From NCBI GenBank assembly GCA_964539785.1, contig CAZIJQ010000042.1:1-20866 (forward strand): DNA of 20,866 nt. The letters run 5' to 3'. Of this stretch, positions 3,046 to 11,921 are shown in pieces; position 1 is the first letter of the stretch, and each line of letters opens with the position of its first letter. The notes beneath the pieces were generated by a model, which saw only the letters and a program-made list of their open reading frames with translations, was not told where the DNA came from and ran no database searches. This DNA is from an uncultured bacterium. GTDB taxonomy: Bacteria > Fidelibacterota > Marinisomatia > Marinisomatales > TCS56. A program made the translations under genes and the position numbers.

Positions 3046-3315
3046 TTATTTTAAAGCCACCTCATCCACCACCCCAACAATGATCGACCGGATTGGCCCC
3101 ATAGGGTCGTCCACTACCTGGCGGGCGGAATTGCCTTCGTCGATCACCAGCACCGTTTCACCAGCGCCGCTGTCGGTCCAATCTACCGCAATTAAATAAT
3201 CTCCGGTTGGTTTGCCGTTCAGTCCCAGTTTGTCTACCACCAGTAGCCGGCGGTTCTCATAAAATTTATGATTTATAGTAGAATGGATCGTTCCGCAGAC
3301 GCGCCCCAGAATCAT
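3046..3315 (-). CDS. BMC vertex protein (BMC-P, EutN/CcmL/PduN family)
   Basis: 89 aa with an MILGRVCGTIHST...GAGETVLVIDEGNSARQVV pattern typical of Pfam EutN_CcmL. 4-nt start/stop overlap with the upstream BMC-P gene. Confidence 0.85.
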   Translation of the reverse strand: MILGRVCGTIHSTINHKFYENRRLLVVDKLGLNGKPTGDYLIAVDWTDSGAGETVLVIDEGNSARQVVDDPMGPIRSIIVGVVDEVALK

Positions 3316-3596
3316 TGCTCCTCCCCATCGTAAAGCTGTACATCGTCAACGATGCCCACCACGGCATGATCCACCGGCACGAACCAGGGGTCCATGAGTA
3401 GAGCGGCCTCGCGGCTGCTTTCATAATACACCAGTTCGCCCGGTCCTGCCATGCGGGTGCTATCGGCAGCGATCACCGGTGATTTGACCGGCTGCTGGTA
3501 TTTATCCAGCGGTTGCATCACCAGCATGGGGACACCTTCCAGTCCGTCATAAACCACGGACGGGGTCAGTGTGCCGATAATTCGACCTAACTTCAT
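3312..3596 (-). CDS. BMC vertex protein (BMC-P, EutN/CcmL/PduN family)
   Basis: 94 aa, MKLGRIIGTLTPSVV...AGPGELVYYESSREAALL. 4-nt overlaps with both neighbouring genes, consistent with translational coupling. Confidence 0.85.
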   Translation of the reverse strand: MKLGRIIGTLTPSVVYDGLEGVPMLVMQPLDKYQQPVKSPVIAADSTRMAGPGELVYYESSREAALLMDPWFVPVDHAVVGIVDDVQLYDGEEQ

Positions 3597-4393
3597 TCGC
3601 CCTCCGATAGTTTATCAAGGTTGGCACGACCGAAATAAGTGGTAGCATCCACCTGGGCCGCCATCTCCGGATGCAGGTTGGGGATGATTGTCTCCCGCAG
3701 CCAATTCTCAGTGCTGGTACAGGCCTCTCGAGCAATTCGCACCGCCGCTTCCACTTCGTGCAGATCACCATTAAAAATCGTGAATGCCTTGCCACCGATA
3801 TCATCCGCCAGACGAATTTCAACAATATTGACTTCGGCTCCTTTAACGCCCGCATCGGCTGAACGAAGAGTAGCCGCCACGGTAAAGGTCTCACAAATAC
3901 CCAGTGCCCGCGGTTCACATTTGCGGCGCTGACCCAAGACAGAATCGTGAACCTGATCGTGAACCACCGGCAGGATTACCGAATCCACTACTTGAGTGCC
4001 TCCGACTTGCAATCCCTCAGCATAAGCCTCTTCCACAGCGCCGACGCTGCCGCCGATCAACACTAAATATTTACCGTTGTGCACCGTTCCCGATTTGATC
4101 ACTGCGATTGGCGCCCGCTTGATCATGGCATCGCCGCATAGAATACCAATAGTGACGCTGGAATACTCTATCAGGGCAATGGCCGGGTAGCGGGTGTCAG
4201 ATATCCTGGATCTGGGATCGGGAACTGTGGGCTGGGGATCAGGCTTTGAAGGTTGAGGCTCAATCTTTTCAACAAAATTTTCCAGTCCGTCGTCTTTAGC
4301 TGTTGGTTCTTCCAACACCATTGACTCAGAAGTCTTTTTCTGGGCCGCCTTTTGTCGTCGCAATTCTCCGGGGGTTGGTTTCTTTTCACTCAT
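3593..4393 (-). CDS. Tandem BMC-domain shell protein (BMC-T, PduT-like arrangement) with ~65-aa disordered K/P/E/Q-rich N-terminal extension
   Basis: Two canonical-order BMC domains (AIALIEYSSVTIGILCGDAMIKRAP... and ALGICETFTVAATLRSADAGVKGAEV...). They are preceded by MSEKKPTPGELRRQKAAQKK...PQPSKPDPQPTVPDP, a low-complexity segment. Confidence 0.8.
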   Translation of the reverse strand: MSEKKPTPGELRRQKAAQKKTSESMVLEEPTAKDDGLENFVEKIEPQPSKPDPQPTVPDPRSRISDTRYPAIALIEYSSVTIGILCGDAMIKRAPIAVIKSGTVHNGKYLVLIGGSVGAVEEAYAEGLQVGGTQVVDSVILPVVHDQVHDSVLGQRRKCEPRALGICETFTVAATLRSADAGVKGAEVNIVEIRLADDIGGKAFTIFNGDLHEVEAAVRIAREACTSTENWLRETIIPNLHPEMAAQVDATTYFGRANLDKLSEGE

Positions 4394-4420
4394 TACTAAT
4401 TACCCATTACTATTTACTAA

Positions 4421-5866
4421 TCAAACAATTCTGAAATGATCCACCAGAACGCAGCGCCGTTCCCGGGAAAAACTCAGGGGATTGGTGATGCCTTCGCCGG
4501 TGGGACTGGCAATCGAGAATGAACAGTAGCCTTCGCCTTCGTAACCCAGCCCAGCGAGAGATGGACCATTCTTGACAAAAACACTGCAGTTCATCACTCG
4601 CGCCATTCGACTCAGGTTATCCAGATTACGGGAATGCATCATGGCCGTGTGACCGAAACCGTGTTCCGCTTCCTTGGCCAGATCGATGGCCTGGTTGGCA
4701 TCAGGTACGATCACGAAGGGAATCACCGGCATCATCTGCTCGGTCCATACCAGGGGATGGTTGGCATCCACCGGTGCTATGGCCAGGCGGATGTGCTCAT
4801 CGACCTTAAGACCGATCTTCGCCAGAATTTCCTGAACGTTCTTCCCAATCATGTCCTTGTTCATAACCGCCGGTTGGCGGGGACCACGATTTTCGCTGAA
4901 AATCACCGATTCCAATTCCTTAACCTGGTGCTCTTTCAGCACATAGGCATCGTAGCGCAGCAAGGCCGATAAAAGTTGCGGGGCCACTGCTTCCACAACA
5001 ATAATTTCTTTTTCCAGGATGCAGATCAGGTTATTGTCCATGGAAGCACCCTTAACAATACTGCGGGCTGCCTTTTCAATATCGGCAGTCTCGTCCACCA
5101 CCACCGGGGGATTCCCCGGTCCGGCGCAGACGGCGCGCTTACCGCTGGTCATTGCGGCTTTCACCACCGCAGCGCCTCCAGTTACTACCAGCAGGCGCAC
5201 ACCGGGATGCTGCATCAATTCCTGGGCACTGGCGACGGTGGGTTGAGCGATGGTCGTTACCAGATTGGGTGGTCCGCCAGCGTCAACAATGGCGGCATTC
5301 AGCAATTCAACATTGTAAACCGAAACATTCTTGGCCGTGGGATGGACATTGAAAACTGCTGCATTCCCGGCTGCTACCATCCCAATTGTATTACAGATGA
5401 TAGTGGAAGTAGGGTTGGTGCAAGGCGTAATTGAACCGATCACCCCGTAGGGCGCCAACTCCATCAGCGTTAAACCATGATCACCGGTCTTGGCCCAAGG
5501 TTTGAGTATTTCGGTCCCCGGTGTTTTATCGATCACCAACCGGTTTTTTTCAATCTTGTCAGCTACCCGCCCCAGACCGGTTTCGTCATAGGCCCGTTGG
5601 GCCAGGTCTTCGCTGTGCTCGGTCATCACCCGTCGGATCGAGGCGATAATATCATCCCGCTTGGACAGAGACAGGGCATTTAACTGATCAAAGGCTTTAG
5701 CTGCCGCCGCCACTGCCAGATCGATGGTAGGGAAAATCCCCATTCCACCAGCGGCTACAGTGCTCCCGGATTGCTCCAGTACTCCCGATGCAACAGGTGT
5801 TTGGGTCACCCGCTTCACCAGCCGGGCGGCAATTTGCTCAACCTGTTCCTGGGTTAATTGTGCCAT
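4421..5866 (-). CDS. CoA-acylating aldehyde dehydrogenase (PduP/EutE family) with N-terminal encapsulation-peptide-like helix
   Basis: Aldehyde dehydrogenase fold with the catalytic Cys region NNLICILEKE. Preferred start is the ATG at 5866 (MAQLTQEQVEQIAARLVKRV...), which has AAAGGA 8 nt upstream. The ORF-track start at 5905 would lie inside a hairpin repeat. The N-terminal amphipathic helix plus G/S/T-rich linker is typical of BMC cargo. Confidence 0.85.
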   Translation of the reverse strand: MAQLTQEQVEQIAARLVKRVTQTPVASGVLEQSGSTVAAGGMGIFPTIDLAVAAAAKAFDQLNALSLSKRDDIIASIRRVMTEHSEDLAQRAYDETGLGRVADKIEKNRLVIDKTPGTEILKPWAKTGDHGLTLMELAPYGVIGSITPCTNPTSTIICNTIGMVAAGNAAVFNVHPTAKNVSVYNVELLNAAIVDAGGPPNLVTTIAQPTVASAQELMQHPGVRLLVVTGGAAVVKAAMTSGKRAVCAGPGNPPVVVDETADIEKAARSIVKGASMDNNLICILEKEIIVVEAVAPQLLSALLRYDAYVLKEHQVKELESVIFSENRGPRQPAVMNKDMIGKNVQEILAKIGLKVDEHIRLAIAPVDANHPLVWTEQMMPVIPFVIVPDANQAIDLAKEAEHGFGHTAMMHSRNLDNLSRMARVMNCSVFVKNGPSLAGLGYEGEGYCSFSIASPTGEGITNPLSFSRERRCVLVDHFRIV

Positions 5867-5913
5867 AATATGTCCTTTAGCCAGGGGATTAGTTACCGTG
5901 TACATCCAATCAT

Positions 5914-5981
5914 GTCACCCTGAGCCTGTCGAAGGGTGTCAACATGATTGATCAGCCATGCTTCGACGGGCTCAGCATGAC
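5914..5981. repeat. Inverted pair of 27-nt hairpin repeat units (REP/BIME-like) in the BMC-P/AldDH intergenic gap
   Basis: Unit A1 at 5914-5940 is gtcaccc-TGAGCCTGTCGAA-gggtgtc. Unit A2 at 5955-5981 has the opposite orientation (its reverse complement is gtcatgc-TGAGCCCGTCGAA-gcatggc). The 13-nt loop is conserved; the 7-bp stems differ but remain complementary. Confidence 0.75.
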
Positions 5982-5994
5982 AGACACGCGTCAA

Positions 5995-6294
5995 CTAATC
6001 GTTCACGCCTTTTTTGTAGCGGATTTTTCCGTCTACTTCCCAGTTGTCAACGATGGCCATAACCACAGCATCGCAGGGACGCTTGTCGGTCATTACCGTC
6101 TGCCGGGCGGAACTTCCGCTGGCATAGAGAACCATTTCACCCACTCCTGCCTGGACAGCATCAGCGGCGACAACAAAGCCGCCGCTGGGTTTACCATCCA
6201 TGTCAATATTCTGGAGCAGCAGAAATTTGAGGCCCTCCAAGCTCTGTTCTTTTTGTGTGGCTACCAGGGTACCCACTACTTGTGCCAGAACCAT
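5995..6294 (-). CDS. BMC vertex protein (BMC-P, EutN/CcmL/PduN family)
   Basis: 99 aa, [16 protein letters not shown]...[18 protein letters not shown]. Third BMC-P paralog in the locus. Confidence 0.85.
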
Positions 6295-6305
6295 ATTCCC
6301 GAGAC

Positions 6306-6614
6306 CTAATCCTCGGTCATTTTGGCTTTGGGCTTGTCACCGCGACCGATAGGCATTACCAGGTCCACATTACTGTGGGGACGGGCAATTACATGAACGG
6401 CAACGATTTCGCCTACGCGGGCGGCACCGGCTTTACCGGCATCGCAGGCAGCCTTTACAGCGGCCACATCACCGCGGACGATCGCTGAAACATAACCGCC
6501 ACCGGTCTTTTCATAAGATACTAGCTCGACTTTGGCCGCTTTGACCATGGCGTCGGCGGCTTCCACTACTGCCGGGAAACTGCGCGTTTCGATCATTCCA
6601 AGTGCTTCTGCCAT
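6306..6614 (-). CDS. BMC hexamer shell protein (BMC-H, PduA/EutM/CcmK-like)
   Basis: 102 aa. [56 protein letters not shown] is a near-consensus single BMC domain. It has a short Lys-rich C-terminal tail ([13 protein letters not shown]). Confidence 0.9.
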
Positions 6615-6667
6615 TTTACTTCCTCCAGTGTATTAAGAGTTAATTTGAAAATTCTTTTAAGATCAGT

Positions 6668-6722
6668 GTCATACTGAGCTTGTCGAAGTATGACCGTCAC
6701 CCTTCGACAGGCTCAGGGTAAC
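6668..6722. repeat. Inverted pair of the same 27-nt hairpin repeat units in the BMC-T/BMC-H intergenic gap
   Basis: B1 at 6668-6694 is gtcatac-TGAGCTTGTCGAA-gtatgac, a perfect 7-bp stem. B2 at 6696-6722 has the opposite orientation (reverse complement gttaccc-TGAGCCTGTCGAA-gggtgac). A gtatgac arm remnant lies at 6735-6741. Confidence 0.75.
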
Positions 6723-6746
6723 AGAAGGGCTCCAGTATGACACAAA

Positions 6747-7373
6747 TTATTTTTTATCTTTCTCAACCCCGGTGATTTCTTCAATGCATTTTACGGCGGC
6801 GCGCCAGCCTACATCAATATCCCTTTCGGCTCCGCCCAGATACACACGGCCGAAGCTGCCGAAAGTTCGTACTTCCAAAATATTGATTTCGGCAGCTTTT
6901 TCCGCTTCATTGGCCGCCAAGGCGGCATAAGCAGCGGGCTGGACCTCCATAACGAACATGGTTTCGCCGGGAACAATCATATTACCGTGGCGCATGCGGT
7001 TAATCAACTGGGTCTGGTGATCATCGATGTGGCGAATCACCTGCTGAGAATAAATTTTTGGCTTCCAACGCTTCTCCTCCTTCAAATCCAACGCATCCAG
7101 AATAGCCTGTCCAGCCTGGCGCACATCGGCCTGGGATTCGGAATGAATTTCCAGCATTCCGAACAACCGTTCCACGATCTGCATCCCTGGAGTAACATTA
7201 GTAGATTTCAAGGCGATGTCGGTGATCCGGTTGATTTCGATCCCTGGGGAAATTTCAACATACAATGAAGCCATCCCGGCGATTGGTAAAAAACCCTTAG
7301 CCACTGTGCCGAGAAAGGCGGCGTACTGGGGTTGAAGATTATCCAGAAAACAATAAGCGCGTAAATCGACCAC
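6747..7373 (-). CDS. Tandem BMC-domain shell protein (BMC-T, PduT-like)
   Basis: 208 aa. Two BMC-like halves: [24 protein letters not shown]... and [29 protein letters not shown].... Domain order appears canonical (non-permuted). Assignment rests on the motif pattern only. Confidence 0.7.
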
Positions 7374-7390: not shown

Positions 7391-8800
7391 TTAATTCGAA
7401 ATTGTTGTTTCTTGGGCACCTTTAACGATCCCAATACTGGCGCTGGCACCAATCCGGGTAGCCCCGGCTTCAACCATCTTGCGGGCATCGTCATACGATC
7501 TGATACCACCGGCGGCTTTCACGCCCAATCCCGCTCCTTGGACAACCCGGCTCATGAGAGCCACATCTTCGGCAGTAGCACCACCAGGACCAAAACCGGT
7601 GGACGTTTTAACATAATTAGCGCGAGCTTTTTTTGACAGCTCGCAAGCCCTAACTTTTTCGTCGTCGGTTAACAAAGCTGCTTCGATAATAACTTTACTG
7701 GTGGCGCTGCCGTCTTCGCAGGCCTCACAGACTGATCGGATATCCCGGTAAACTAAGTCATCTTTGCCACTTTTCAGAGCGCCGATATTGATCACCATAT
7801 CGATTTCTTTCGCACCATCGCGGATCGCCTGGCGGGTCTCCATGGCCTTGATCTCCGGTGAATGGGCTCCGGAAGGAAAGCCCACCACGGTGCAGACTTT
7901 CACATCGGAACCGTCCAGTTCTTTGGCTGCTAGCCTCACATAACTGGGACTAATACATACCGTGGCAAAATGGAAGTCCCGAGCTTCACCACAAAGCTTT
8001 TTGATATCGGCATCGGTGGCATCGGGCTTCAAAACGGTGTGATCAATGCAACGGGCAATATCCTCCGGAACGTTTTCGCAGCCGGTACCGTTGTGGTAGC
8101 CGACCCGCTCCACACCAAAATCCATGAATTTGCGTACGGCATCGGGCTGTTGGACCATCTGCTTGCCGCGGATATAATCGGCTTCCAGCGGCTGGGGTAC
8201 GCCAGTGGGCGACAGGGTGATTCCAGCTTTTGCCAAGATTTTCTCGACTTCATCGGTGATTCGTACCAGATCCGATTCGGAGATTCCGGTTTCAACAACC
8301 GAGACCGGTGGTGCCGATTGCGGCGCTGAAAATTCGATGTCAGGTTGCTGTTCGATATCAGTAATCATTTGTACCCGTCGCAAATGCCGCTCGGCGGTAC
8401 ATTCACTGGTAATAAAAGTTTCCACAATTTGTTGCGCCAGTGCGGCACCAATCAGTCCGGCACCCAGTGTCAGAACCCGGGCATCGTTGTGTTCGCGGGC
8501 GTTTTTGGCGGTTGATACATCATAGCACAGAGCTGCCCGAATGCCCAACACCTTGTTGGCGGTCATGGCGGAACCAATTCCGGCCCCATCTACCATTACA
8601 CCAAAATCGGCCTCACCAGCAGCGACTTTGCGGGCTACGGCCAGGGCGAACTCGGGATAATCCACAGCAGCGGTGCCATCGGTGCCACAGTCAATTATCG
8701 TACTACCACAACCGGAAAGAAATTCTTTCAATTGGTTTTTCAAGCCATATCCACCGTGATCGGCGCCAATGGCTATTTTCAAGTTTTTTATGTCTTTCAT
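7391..8800 (-). CDS. Fusion protein: RpiB/LacAB-family sugar-phosphate isomerase (aa 1-150) + deoxyribose-phosphate aldolase DeoC/DERA (aa ~230-469)
   Basis: N-terminal [14 protein letters not shown]...[30 protein letters not shown] aligns residue-by-residue with E. coli RpiB. C-terminal [13 protein letters not shown] and the Schiff-base lysine motif [14 protein letters not shown] are DERA signatures. The two are joined by a Pro-rich linker containing an amphipathic helix. Confidence 0.85.
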
Positions 8801-8825: not shown

Positions 8826-9773
8826 TTAACCATTTAACAGCAATTTATTCGCGACAAATTCATCCGTAATAAGCGTATTGAAAAATTTACCCTGTAGTCC
8901 GGCGCGGATTGCTGCCAGCTTACGCTGACCACCAGCCACCGCGATTGATCGGGATTTTTTAGCCAGCTCTGTCAGATCTATTCCGATTGTACGCCGGTCC
9001 AGATCGGAAGAACAAATTTTCCCTTTACCATCGATAATCCGTGAACAAATATCGCCCACAGCCCCCCGTTTCAGCAAATCATTAACTTCATTATTTTCAA
9101 AATAATCTGCCCGTACCAGGACTGAATCCATGCCGAAAGAGCCAATGGTGAAAAAGGCTACCTGGGCCGAGCGGGCCAATTGTAGCGTTCGAGCAATATT
9201 TTTATCGGATACAATCGCTGCCTTAACTGCCGGGCTGTCAACGATGGCGGGTAATGGCAGCAGATAAGGAATGGCCCCGCATTTCTCACCAATGGTCTTG
9301 GCTATTTCACTGGCGTGGGTGTCATATTCGGCCCGTGATATACCGCCGTTCAGCTGTACTACCGTCATGTCCTTAAATTTTTTAGCCTGCACCTGGCCTG
9401 CCAAAGCCTGCATGGTGGTACCCCAGGATACACCAAGGGTCAGGCCATCTTCCAGCAGGTCATTCAGCAGTGATACCGCTGCCTGTCCCAGACGGCGCTG
9501 TACCAACCAGTAGTTACCGTCATCCGGAACGACAATGACTTGCTTGAGCTTGTATTTTTTTTGCAGCTGTGCTTCCAGACGCGTACCGGCAGCTTGGGGA
9601 TCTTTGATTTTTATACTGACAATGCCCTGCTGGCGGGCCGCCTGGAGCAGTCGCGAGACGCCGGGTCGGGAGACTGACATTTTGCGGGCAATATCCTGTT
9701 GGCTGAGCCCATGTTCATAATACAGCCGGGCAGCCTCCACCAACTGGGAAATTCGTTCTGAGTCAGTCAACAT
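8826..9773 (-). CDS. SorC/DeoR(Bacillus-type)/CggR family sugar-phosphate-responsive transcriptional regulator
   Basis: 315 aa. N-terminal HTH (LYYEHGLSQQDIARKMSVSRPGVSRLLQAARQQGIV) is followed by a SorC-type sugar-binding domain. It is the first gene of the BMC operon, 25 nt upstream of the RpiB-DERA gene. Confidence 0.85.
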   Translation of the reverse strand: MLTDSERISQLVEAARLYYEHGLSQQDIARKMSVSRPGVSRLLQAARQQGIVSIKIKDPQAAGTRLEAQLQKKYKLKQVIVVPDDGNYWLVQRRLGQAAVSLLNDLLEDGLTLGVSWGTTMQALAGQVQAKKFKDMTVVQLNGGISRAEYDTHASEIAKTIGEKCGAIPYLLPLPAIVDSPAVKAAIVSDKNIARTLQLARSAQVAFFTIGSFGMDSVLVRADYFENNEVNDLLKRGAVGDICSRIIDGKGKICSSDLDRRTIGIDLTELAKKSRSIAVAGGQRKLAAIRAGLQGKFFNTLITDEFVANKLLLNG

Positions 9774-9774
9774 A

Positions 9775-9815
9775 GTTTGAACATATGTTCATTGGGTAGT
9801 ATCATTTGTTCAAAC
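9775..9815. promoter_or_regulatory. Operator-like palindrome TGAACATATGTTCA (9778-9791) plus a third half-site TGTTCAAAC (9807-9815), immediately upstream of the SorC/DeoR start codon
   Basis: Perfect 14-bp palindrome beginning 5 nt upstream of the regulator ATG (9773, minus strand). The outer 9-mers gtttgaaca (9775-9783) and tgttcaaac (9807-9815) are exact inverted repeats. Confidence 0.4.
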
Positions 9816-9895
9816 CTACCGGATTATTTTGGGTTTTGCAAGGAAAATTTACACAGTCGTTTTTATCGATGGTAATTTGTGGTTATAACACTGTT

Positions 9896-9922
9896 GGCAT
9901 GGTTCGACAGGCTCACTATGAC
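9896..9922. repeat. Single copy of the same hairpin repeat unit in the leader region upstream of the SorC/DeoR gene
   Basis: ggcatgg-TTCGACAGGCTCA-ctatgac. Its reverse complement is gtcatag-TGAGCCTGTCGAA-ccatgcc. Same loop as the other copies; the stem has 5 Watson-Crick pairs plus 1 G-U. Confidence 0.65.
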
Positions 9923-10114
9923 ATCTCCCCTGTCATTCCGAAGGAAGGCATGCCTGCCGTAGATCCTGATTTATCAGGACGCAGGCAGGTACGACTGAGT
10001 AATCTACTTTGTCTGGAGTAAGTTCATTGTAGATTTCTCATCCCGATGTATCGGTATTCGAAATGACAAATATGGAAACTGTTAAAACGGTTAACGTGTA
10101 TTTACCGATGGTTA

Positions 10115-10141
10115 CCCACAACTGAAGTTGTGGGCTTTTTG
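10115..10141 (+). terminator. Canonical intrinsic terminator on the plus strand with no annotated plus-strand gene upstream
   Basis: cccacaac-TGAA-gttgtggg is a perfect 8-bp GC-rich stem with a 4-nt loop, followed by CTTTTTG. The reverse orientation has no U-tract. Confidence 0.6.
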
Positions 10142-10278
10142 CTCTGATCTGCAAATTGTACAATTGATTGTGTCAAATACATTTGGGACTGCACTTGAAT
10201 GATATCATCATGCCCATAGTTTTAACTGTGGGTCATTTAATTACTACACACCCCAACCATTTCAATGGTTTACTGCTG

Positions 10279-11622
10279 TTAAACCAAATTTTTGACCCGA
10301 TCCACCAGAGCCTGGGCTTGGGCCTGATCCGGGGCTTCAGCATAGATGCGCATGATCGGTTCAGTGTTGGATTTACGCAGATGAACCCAGCTGTCTTTCC
10401 AGGTGAACTTAACGCCATCGATTGTATTGACATCAGCCCGGGAAAATTCCCGCCGCACAGCAGCCAGGGATTGATCGACATCCACACCTTCCAGGCTGAC
10501 CTTATCTTTCACCATCACAAATTGCGGTAACGTTGCCACAATAGCACTTAGCGGTTTCATGGATTGTGCCATGCGATTCAGCACCATGGCGGCTCCCACC
10601 AGCGAATCGCGACACAGATGAGCGGCCATCAAAATGACACCGCCGTTGCCCTCACCGCCCAGTGGGGCATCCAGGGTTTGCATCAACTGAACCACATTAA
10701 TTTCACCTACGGCCGAGCGAACAACTTTGGTACCATATCGGTCAGCCAGCTTGTCTAATGCCATAGTGGTGGACAGATTCACTACAATTGGTTCAGGTTT
10801 ACCAGTGGTTTTCCAGTAGCCATCCACGGCCAGAACCAGAGTGTTTTCCTCACCCAGCGGCATCCCCTTTTCTGATACAATCGCTAAACGGTCCGCATCG
10901 GGATCCACTGCAAAACCGGCGTCGGATCCAGTTTGGGTCACGACATCACCCAAGTCCCGCAGATTTTCCGGTAGTGGCTCCGTACCCCGCAAAAATTTCC
11001 CAGATGGTTCGCAATACAGCGGTACCACTTCACAGTTCAGCGCCCTCAACATAGCTGGCAGAGCTTCGGCACCGGCGCCATTAACAGCATCGATGGCAAT
11101 TTTAAATTTTCGCTGTTTAATAGCCGCCACATCGATACAATCCAATGACAGAATGTGGTCTATGTGTTTTTCAATTGCGTCTTTCTGGGTAGTGCGCTGT
11201 CCGGCTTCTGCGATATGAATTGTATCGCAACCGGCATCTACATGATCGAACAATTGTCGACATTCGTCCGGCAGAAAAAAAGTGCCATCGACCCGGACAA
11301 ATTTCAAGCCGTTCCACTCGATAGGATTATGGCTGGCGGTCACAATGATTCCGCCTACTGCAGTGGATTGCTCGACAACAAACTGGACCGTGGGTGTTGG
11401 GACGATTCCGCAATCGACTACATCTCTCCCGAAGGCAGTTAATTCTTCGGCAATGGCGTTTGTGAGCGTTACGCCAGAAGGACGGCTGTCGCGCCCCAGC
11501 ACAATTTCGCCAAAAGGCAACATATCATTGACAGCACGAGCATAAACCTGGACAATGGCAGGTGTCAAGTGACTGGCGACCAATCCCCTAACACCGGAAA
11601 TACTGCGAATCAACATTGACAA
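10279..11622 (-). CDS. alpha-D-phosphohexomutase superfamily enzyme (PGM/PMM family); candidate phosphopentomutase, GlmM not excluded
   Basis: 447 aa. Phosphoserine loop GIIVTASHNP, metal-binding loop FAVDPDADR, sugar loop GEENTL and phosphate-binding RKSNTEP are all present. Immediately upstream of the SPU-type BMC operon. Confidence 0.8.
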   Translation of the reverse strand: MSMLIRSISGVRGLVASHLTPAIVQVYARAVNDMLPFGEIVLGRDSRPSGVTLTNAIAEELTAFGRDVVDCGIVPTPTVQFVVEQSTAVGGIIVTASHNPIEWNGLKFVRVDGTFFLPDECRQLFDHVDAGCDTIHIAEAGQRTTQKDAIEKHIDHILSLDCIDVAAIKQRKFKIAIDAVNGAGAEALPAMLRALNCEVVPLYCEPSGKFLRGTEPLPENLRDLGDVVTQTGSDAGFAVDPDADRLAIVSEKGMPLGEENTLVLAVDGYWKTTGKPEPIVVNLSTTMALDKLADRYGTKVVRSAVGEINVVQLMQTLDAPLGGEGNGGVILMAAHLCRDSLVGAAMVLNRMAQSMKPLSAIVATLPQFVMVKDKVSLEGVDVDQSLAAVRREFSRADVNTIDGVKFTWKDSWVHLRKSNTEPIMRIYAEAPDQAQAQALVDRVKNLV

Positions 11623-11726: not shown

Positions 11727-11921
11727 TTATTTGTAATAGCGCGCCATTCGGGCAAGGCGGCGGGCGGTCTTTTTCCGCTTAGCGCGTTTTTCATCGCTGG
11801 GCTTAACATAGAACGATTTAGTCTTAAGCGTACGCAGCACGCCAGCGCGCTCCCACTTCTTTTTGAAGCGGCGCAAGGCCCGTTCTAGCGGTTCGTCTTT
11901 TCTGACCGTCACTTCCACCAT
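11727..11921 (-). CDS. rpsU: 30S ribosomal protein S21
   Basis: MVEVTVRKDEPLERALRRFKKK...ARRLARMARYYK is an S21 signature. The start at 11921 has a perfect AGGAGGTGA SD 6 nt upstream. The longer ORF-track start at 11978 lacks an SD and adds a non-conserved extension. Confidence 0.85.
   Translation of the reverse strand: MVEVTVRKDEPLERALRRFKKKWERAGVLRTLKTKSFYVKPSDEKRAKRKKTARRLARMARYYK

Follow-up and report, generated by a model that had tools for sequence, protein, structure and literature searches.

Phosphopentomutases (PPMs) of the phosphoglucomutase/phosphomannomutase (PGM/PMM) family are established in the case of Thermococcus kodakarensis TK1777 (Protein Data Bank (PDB) entry 9IX8), which converts deoxyribose-1-phosphate and ribose-1-phosphate to the 5-phosphates, is reported to show no significant activity on hexose phosphates, including glucosamine-1-phosphate, and carries modified versions of motif III (AAEP) and motif IV (IRPSGTEP) that are proposed to give pentose specificity (PMC11641776). 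A second such enzyme is assumed in JCVI-syn3A and Mycoplasma mycoides, where the PGM-family gene deoB/0733 lies between deoC and a pyrimidine nucleoside phosphorylase gene and has been assigned PPM and PGM functions from this context (PMC6609329). Here we analyze a PGM/PMM-type mutase gene that borders a bacterial microcompartment (BMC) locus of the SPU type in a 20,866-nucleotide stretch of DNA (contig CAZIJQ010000042.1, assembly GCA_964539785.1; called the window below) from an uncultured member of the Marinimicrobia. A preliminary description of this DNA had put the mutase forward as a candidate PPM feeding the deoxyribose-5-phosphate aldolase (DERA) of the compartment, and was correct in stating that PPMs exist within the PGM/PMM family. 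The gene family, the type of microcompartment and the PGM-family PPMs are already known, and an SPU microcompartment that includes an RpiB-DERA fusion has been described for Marinimicrobia (PMC4207490; the SPU type also in PMC8217296).

The window protein belongs to the same superfamily as TK1777 and, like it, scores above the cutoff of NCBIfam family TIGR03990. It has, however, GEGN and LRKSNTEP where TK1777 has AAEP and IRPSGTEP, and the two proteins are 29% identical, with a score (145 bits) about equal to those obtained for Pseudomonas PMM/PGM and the bacterial GlmMs. Given these differences, the closeness to the archaeal PPM that the preliminary description had implied is not borne out, and TK1777 is not the nearest branch. 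The best solved structures are instead those of PH0923 (1WQA, 247 bits, 35% identity), TK1108 (9DU5, 236 bits) and ST0242 (2F7L, 201 bits), all in the range of 30-35% identity, which have in common with the window protein four domains, TASHNP, DxDADR, a GGExNGG-type loop and an R(A/K)SGTEP-type loop. The window protein nevertheless reads GEGN rather than GEEN, DPD rather than DGD, and SNTEP rather than SGTEP, and is placed in a separate bacterial clade. Bacterial GlmM (E. coli b3176; TIGR01455; CDD cd05802) is a member of the same superfamily with the same length and order of catalytic loops, but the E. coli enzyme has GTDGIRG in place of SISGVRG and is 28% identical. The sugar loop of bacterial GlmM is GEQSGH, compared to GEGNGG in the window protein. 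The same kind of context argument can be made for the window mutase as for deoB/0733, the two being likened by context rather than by sequence, although deoB/0733 comes from a wall-less organism that needs no GlmM. Finally, as in E. coli deoCABD and B. subtilis dra-nupC-pdp, the chromosomal slot beside the Marinimicrobia mutase holds deoC and genes for purine nucleoside phosphorylase (PNP) and thymidine phosphorylase (TP), and the regulator of the BMC locus is most like Bacillus DeoR. In contrast to these classical deo systems, the loci that we fetched are without alkaline-phosphatase-type DeoB and have an aldehyde dehydrogenase (ALDH) added, and in the window lineage the pathway is housed in a microcompartment of the SPU type whose DERA is fused to RpiB (PMC4207490, PMC8217296).

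On balance, the evidence leans toward the mutase being a housekeeping phosphohexomutase of a subfamily of the FCB type, probably the GlmM/PGM-type enzyme of the cell, which merely borders a slot for deoxyribose-catabolic genes. Its substrates are most probably hexose or hexosamine phosphates (the job of a GlmM, PGM or PMM), as suggested by its ubiquity and by the retention of Glu and Asn in the sugar loop. Judged by sequence, the mutase is neither encapsulated, nor a dedicated BMC component, nor co-regulated with the BMC genes.

The mutase and its bacterial subfamily

The list of open reading frames (ORFs) and their translations show an intact mutase ORF on the minus strand that spans positions 10279-11622 exactly. 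The TTG at 11622 is unlikely to be the start codon because homologues all begin at the position of the ATG at 11616, two codons inside the ORF; all of these proteins have 445-451 residues and an N-terminus reading MLIRSISG or MIIRSISG. Pfam detects all four PGM_PMM domains (I-IV) with E-values between 1e-28 and 2.5e-10 and with scores (PF02878, 97 bits; PF02879, 87 bits; PF02880, 71 bits; PF00408, 41 bits) that are above the gathering cutoffs. Only PGM_PMM families are matched in Pfam and NCBIfam, there being no match to the DeoB type (alkaline-phosphatase superfamily). The four-domain architecture and the aligned catalytic loops, which were assigned from HMMER alignments to solved structures and from an alignment of homologues, identify the protein as a member of the alpha-D-phosphohexomutase (PGM/PMM) superfamily. 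The gene and its motifs are as follows:

10279-11616, minus strand: alpha-D-phosphohexomutase gene, 445 amino acids from the ATG at 11616, stop codon at 10279-10281
11584-11604, minus strand: N-terminal loop SISGVRG, with the subfamily signature (I/V)SG(I/V/L)RG, invariant in the homologue alignment and common in 150 representatives (see below)
11323-11340, minus strand: catalytic phosphoserine loop TASHNP (Ser95), aligning with TASHNP of PH0923, TK1108 and ST0242
10888-10905, minus strand: metal-binding loop DPDADR (DxDxDR), with Pro at position 2 as a subfamily trait (DPDxDR in most representatives and loci)
10837-10854, minus strand: GEENTL, a conserved PLGEE segment just past the metal loop, not motif III
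10639-10659, minus strand: sugar-binding loop GGEGNGG (motif III), aligning with GGEENGG of PH0923/TK1108 and AAEP of TK1777
10357-10377, minus strand: phosphate-binding loop RKSNTEP (domain IV), from the alignment to solved structures and homologues

A complete phosphohexomutase with four catalytic loops had been recognized in the preliminary description, and the four domains together with TASHNP, DPDADR and RKSNTEP stand. GEENTL had, however, been misassigned as the sugar loop, since it is GGEGNGG that aligns with GGEENGG of PH0923 and TK1108. Moreover, the length and termini of the mutase are equal in BMC and non-BMC lineages in the homologue alignment, so that the protein has no extension for encapsulation.

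The subfamily was surveyed with HMMER by searching 1.8 billion cluster representatives exhaustively, of which the best 150 matches, all scoring 310-435 bits, were examined. GGEG[NS]GG is present in 144 of these 150 sequences, DPDxDR in nearly all and (I/V)SG(I/V/L)RG in most, and the signature of the subfamily can be given as xSGxRG, TASHNP, DPDxDR, GGEG[NS]GG and RxSNTEP. Because they are common across the 150 best representatives, SGVRG and the unusual loops are signatures of a large, coherent bacterial subfamily. To our knowledge, no member of this subfamily has been characterized, and a PDB search found none among the solved structures. Genomic context was taken from contigs encoding homologues and from gene maps of GTDB loci with 10-kb flanks, which are labelled L001 and so on. 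Orthologues with 40-45% identity are present in GTDB species genomes of Bacteroidota, Gemmatimonadota, Ignavibacteria, Fibrobacter, Cloacimonadota, Latescibacteria, Calditrichota, KSB1, Balneolaceae and Acidobacteriota. In a neighbor-joining tree, the window protein falls in a Marinimicrobia clade within this bacterial subfamily (the FCB superphylum and others), which is sister to the archaeal group of TK1777, ST0242, TK1108 and PH0923, and E. coli GlmM is placed outside both. This placement, together with a score for bacterial GlmM (TIGR01455) of 214.5 bits against a cutoff of 447.55 bits, bears on a doubt raised in the preliminary description, where the N-terminal loop SGVRG, in place of GTDGIRG, had left GlmM as a candidate: the mutase is not a GlmM of the bacterial type, but may still have a GlmM-type function.

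NCBIfam family TIGR03990 ('Arch_GlmM') is matched by the mutase with 475.3 bits, which passes the cutoff of 439 bits. The same cutoff is passed by PH0923 (595 bits), ST0242 (546 bits), TK1777 (484 bits, which is higher than the window mutase) and two tandem paralogues from Acidobacteriota (L049, 485 and 513 bits), and TIGR03990 is therefore unable to separate GlmM, PGM/PMM and PPM. Reading the substrate from a database name was rejected on these grounds, because a PGM/PMM (PH0923) and a true PPM (TK1777) also pass; for the orthologues themselves, NCBI uses the name 'phosphoglucosamine mutase' and JGI the name 'phosphomannomutase'. The window mutase is, in this sense, an ordinary member of a very large phosphohexomutase subfamily for which the database name is no guide to the substrate. 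Tandem paralogues of the subfamily are seen in Acidobacteriota/Aminicenantes (L049, 8335-9711 and 9965-11338; also L039, L073 and L086); the 'Arch_GlmM' cutoff is passed by both L049 copies and by the upstream copy in L073 (463 bits), and the pairs suggest sub-functionalization within the subfamily.

The chromosomal slot beside the mutase

In the window, the mutase is preceded by rpsU:

11727-11921, minus strand: rpsU (ribosomal protein S21; Pfam PF01165), 110 bp upstream of the mutase

This gene, which is absent from the preliminary description, is found immediately upstream of the mutase in essentially all Marinimicrobia loci, and the backbone of the phylum reads TatD-ksgA(RrnaAD)-sigma70-rpsU-mutase-[slot]-rlmD. 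The contents of the slot vary:

L022, L029, L030, L032, L035, L036: empty
L017, L018, L025, L027, L028: short DERA of about 220 amino acids
L010-L014, L019: long DERA (42% identical to E. coli DeoC), ALDH and a truncated second ALDH
L021, L023, L024: long DERA, ALDHs and PNP
L016, L102, L103: long DERA, ALDHs, PNP and TP
L100: complete SorC-regulated SPU BMC locus

Family scores support these gene names (deoC, TIGR00126 with 186 and 148 bits; PNP, NF006054 with 343 bits; TP, TIGR02643 with 629 bits), and the fullest of the free modules (L016, L102, L103) has the order rpsU-mutase-deoC-ALDH-PNP-TP-rlmD. In L100, the BMC locus fills precisely the interval from the mutase to rlmD that deoC-ALDH takes up in L013, and the outer flanks of both loci read rlmD-Ion_trans-cNMP-binding-ValRS. 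Because these flanks are identical, the free deoC-ALDH pair is a true positional alternative to the BMC locus. In the clade to which the window belongs (L001-L009, L015), the SPU BMC locus also adjoins rpsU-mutase, and the downstream flank is no longer rlmD. One slot in one phylum, as seen in sister lineages (L013, L016, L017, L022, L100, L102, L103), therefore offers a natural series that leads from free to encapsulated deoxyribose catabolism and lets one ask why and how a pathway becomes encapsulated.

Of 18 informative species loci from Marinimicrobia (GTDB representatives), 11 have a DERA gene in the slot. The mutase is present without DERA in the other seven (L020, L022, L029, L030, L032, L035, L036), six of which have rpsU, the mutase and rlmD in direct succession, and no DERA is found within 10 kb of the orthologue in any of 58 loci from other phyla. 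Nor is the mutase a consistent component of SPU loci: the two adjoin in the window clade and in L100, they are 8 kb apart and separated by unrelated genes in L101, and no mutase lies within 10 kb in L098. The latter, which represents the most widespread RpiB-DERA/BMC lineage (184 collection blocks), keeps ksgA and rlmD as neighbors of its BMC locus, but has neither rpsU nor the mutase within 10 kb. The assertion that a mutase of this kind is often retained near SPU loci fares no better in print: for the two BMC catalogue papers, the word 'mutase' is missing from both main texts (PMC4207490, PMC8217296) and, for PMC8217296, from the supplements as well. The adjacency, which we examined from the BMC side in Marinimicrobia, is not supported outside part of this phylum.

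Neighboring genes in other phyla were considered as a clue to a GlmM function and set aside, as the clusters were mostly spurious high-GC ORFs without Pfam matches; the only Pfam-matched clusters, an HD-domain response regulator and a Maf-like protein, are uninformative on the mutase substrate. A GlmU-like nucleotidyltransferase near the orthologue was likewise discarded as a clue because it occurs in only two near-identical Chitinophagales loci. Two Chitinophagales (Bacteroidota) loci, L072 (11431-11703) and L074 (11401-11700), have an orphan gene of the EutN/CcmL family (82 bits) as the immediate downstream neighbor of the mutase orthologue, with no further shell genes nearby and with DprA, DUF3109, sigma-54 and HslVU next. 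Within Marinimicrobia, a truncated second ALDH of about 287 residues (N-terminal half only) is conserved in the free deo modules right after the full ALDH (L010, 13762-14625; L016, 7633-8502; L103, 7288-8142), and in L013 (12500-14854) the full and truncated forms are fused into one 784-residue protein. In L104 (4961-10311 and 12155-12574), the deoC-ALDH-ALDH'-PNP-TP module has been relocated, without the mutase, to a position beside DNA methyltransferase and PD-(D/E)XK genes, with a nucleoside 2-deoxyribosyltransferase gene nearby; the module may travel as a unit.

Housekeeping and phosphopentomutase readings

If the mutase is a housekeeping enzyme, it would be made constitutively and would act by the phosphoserine/Mg2+/sugar-bisphosphate ping-pong mechanism, shifting phosphate between C1 and the terminal sugar carbon. 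Its transcription would probably come from the rpsU side rather than from the BMC promoter controlled by the DeoR-type regulator. It would stand next to the BMC operon because the interval between the mutase and rlmD serves as a slot for Marinimicrobia deoxyribose-catabolic genes, the contents of which would be swapped by recombination between conserved flanks, so that the adjacency itself would need no selection.

Several observations weigh against this housekeeping role. The closest solved structure reaches only 247 bits, and the name 'phosphoglucosamine mutase' rests on TIGR03990, a family that PH0923 and TK1777 also pass. In addition, the CDD families PGM-like 1 (cd03087) and PGM-like 4 (cd05803), which possibly include the subfamily, have their function given as 'Unknown' (PMC9426568). 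No fewer than five distinct gene sets of the deo type have gathered immediately next to the mutase, among them two non-orthologous types of DERA (the type 42% identical to E. coli DeoC and the type of about 220 residues), and none of the slot modules has a PPM of its own, which fits a functional tie to the mutase. Moreover, both outer flanks have been rearranged in the window clade, and rpsU, the mutase and the BMC genes are still together.

That the mutase is the PPM of the organism, either dedicated or bifunctional with a hexose/hexosamine role, we regard as possible but somewhat doubtful. Nucleoside phosphorylases would generate (deoxy)ribose-1-phosphate, which the cytosolic mutase would convert to (deoxy)ribose-5-phosphate; this product would induce the DeoR-type regulator and enter the microcompartment, where RpiB-DERA would split it into glyceraldehyde-3-phosphate plus acetaldehyde, the latter then being oxidized by the encapsulated acylating aldehyde dehydrogenase. 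Consistent with such a pathway, DERA lies immediately downstream of the mutase in the 11 species loci noted above and also in the metagenomic loci L010-L014, L102 and L103, and genes for PNP and TP follow behind mutase-deoC-ALDH in L016, L102 and L103. The deo modules hold all of the steps from nucleosides to glyceraldehyde-3-phosphate and acetate/acetyl-CoA except for the 1-phosphate to 5-phosphate mutase. Because blastp finds no homologue of E. coli DeoB in 94 loci, and because the gene tables of L098-L104 contain neither DeoB nor any phosphopentomutase-type family, the deo clusters are short of the mutase step only. The same slot position has been taken by both types of DERA and by the BMC locus, and the retention of rpsU-mutase-BMC in the window clade despite its changed outer flanks points in the same direction. 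There is precedent for PPM activity in the PGM family, as described above for TK1777 (PMC11641776) and assumed for deoB/0733 (PMC6609329). TK1108, a relative, has low pentose activity, and the NCBIfam name is no obstacle to a PPM, given that TK1777 itself scores above the window mutase on TIGR03990.

Other features speak against a PPM. The gene at the far edge of the slot, rlmD, is linked equally well and yet suggests no functional tie, so that the adjacency of the mutase may reflect an inherited slot position. The mutase is present where DERA is absent, is missing from (L098) or distant from (L101) some BMC loci, and was left behind when the deo module relocated in L104. Motif III (GEGN) still has the Glu and Asn of the hexose type, in contrast to AAEP in the only characterized PPM of the branch, and the active-site motifs are alike in DERA-linked, unlinked and non-Marinimicrobia orthologues. 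Neither an operator upstream of the mutase nor a terminal extension in the BMC lineages was found. The candidate PPM of the preliminary description therefore survives in part: deoC stands directly behind the mutase in many Marinimicrobia and the gene sets there are DeoB-less, but the mutase also occurs without DERA, is absent near the L098 locus, and lies outside the operator-controlled unit.

A housekeeping phosphohexomutase and a PPM need not be different proteins. The same mutase could, tentatively, moonlight as a PPM in trans for the DeoB-less deo modules and the BMC locus. More generally, and with a little more reserve, we suggest that Marinimicrobia, and perhaps other members of the FCB superphylum, may have no DeoB and might rely on a promiscuous GlmM-like mutase that also converts (deoxy)ribose-1-phosphate to the 5-phosphate. 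If true, this would explain the stepwise build-up of deo genes, and finally of an SPU microcompartment, behind the mutase; the compartment would have the mutase as its cytosolic gateway, and the slot would be a record of the transition from a free to an encapsulated deo pathway. The mutase would also be a new member of the PGM-family PPMs if a PPM role were true; the slot series is a modestly interesting by-product. Our search of the literature on Marinimicrobia nucleoside catabolism found nothing relevant.

That the mutase is instead a plain PGM/PMM for glycogen, or for exopolysaccharide and nucleotide-sugar synthesis, with GlmM and PPM encoded elsewhere and a coincidental neighborhood, seems improbable: its closest characterized relatives, PH0923 and TK1108, are PGM/PMM enzymes (34-35% identity; PMC11940775), JGI uses the label 'phosphomannomutase', and a sugar-1-phosphate nucleotidyltransferase-like gene is located about 1 kb away in Chitinophagales, but this neighbor is confined to two closely related loci, the loci with their 10-kb flanks give no evidence for other paralogues, and the single-copy-like, phylum-wide conservation at rpsU fits an essential step such as that of GlmM better.

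The microcompartment locus, its promoter region and the spacer

As stated in the preliminary description, the mutase lies upstream of, and is co-oriented with, the regulator and BMC genes, all of which are on the minus strand:

9774-10278, minus strand: spacer of 505 bp, with the predicted BMC promoter/operator region in the last 100 bp or so
9803-9815: second related site TTTGAACAAATG, overlapping a TAnnTTTG-like -7 box, with a TTG(A/C)-type box further up
9778-9791: perfect palindrome TGAACATATGTTCA, 5 nt upstream of the regulator ATG, a candidate DeoR/SorC operator
8826-9773, minus strand: SorC-family regulator, Bacillus DeoR-like (Pfam Sugar-bind, 247 bits; NF053881, 355 bits, below the cutoff of 420)
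7391-8800, minus strand: RpiB-DERA fusion, the SPU signature enzyme (Pfam LacAB_rpiB and DeoC; TIGR00126, 280 bits)
3046-7373, minus strand: rest of the SPU BMC locus, namely BMC-T, BMC-H, EutN, acylating aldehyde dehydrogenase, BMC-domain protein and two EutN genes (Pfam)

The regulator gene is the first gene of the BMC transcription unit. This arrangement of palindrome, second site and promoter-like boxes recurs across divergent BMC lineages, with TGAACATATGTTCA placed 5-19 nt ahead of the regulator ATG; L001, L004, L098 and L100 have it, and L008 and L101 show variants. Together, TGAACATATGTTCA and TTTGAACAAATG look like the autoregulated promoter/operator of the SPU operon. The effector of DeoR in B. 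subtilis is deoxyribose-5-phosphate. No copies of the palindrome were found upstream of the mutase or rpsU, the only matches being the site at the regulator gene and a site with three mismatches inside that gene, which is at chance level. Because the operator is at the regulator gene, with none upstream of the mutase or rpsU, the BMC operon looks to be a transcription unit of its own, and the mutase would be constitutive and expressed with rpsU.

The preliminary description had the mutase separated from the regulator by a structured leader alone. The 505-bp spacer is indeed structured, having several long hairpins and a fold z-score of -6.2 against shuffled controls, but it is not a conserved leader: it is about 380 bp longer than the spacers (110-130 bp) of relatives at 72-80% identity, and this extra length is unmatched elsewhere. 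A riboswitch or other known RNA was considered and rejected, as no Rfam family is matched even at E <= 1 and no similar sequence is present in the other loci fetched. At the level of sequence comparison, the spacer is best described as a strain-specific structured insertion, and the extra 380 bp or so could be a small RNA or an element resembling a miniature inverted-repeat transposable element. A terminator-like hairpin is seen on the plus strand of the spacer at 10115-10134.

Two further observations concern the enzymes of the BMC locus. In L003 (12817-14226), a metagenome variant otherwise identical to the window, RpiB-DERA is called as two genes (RpiB of 183 residues and DeoC of 281 residues); this may be due to a sequencing error or a frameshift, or the gene may be split naturally. 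The acylating aldehyde dehydrogenase (4421-5905, minus strand), which is of the PduP/EutE type (NF011927, 646 bits), has 494 or 481 residues depending on the record, and the N-terminus of the longer form has an amphipathic stretch, LTQEQVEQIAARLVKRV, similar to an encapsulation peptide.

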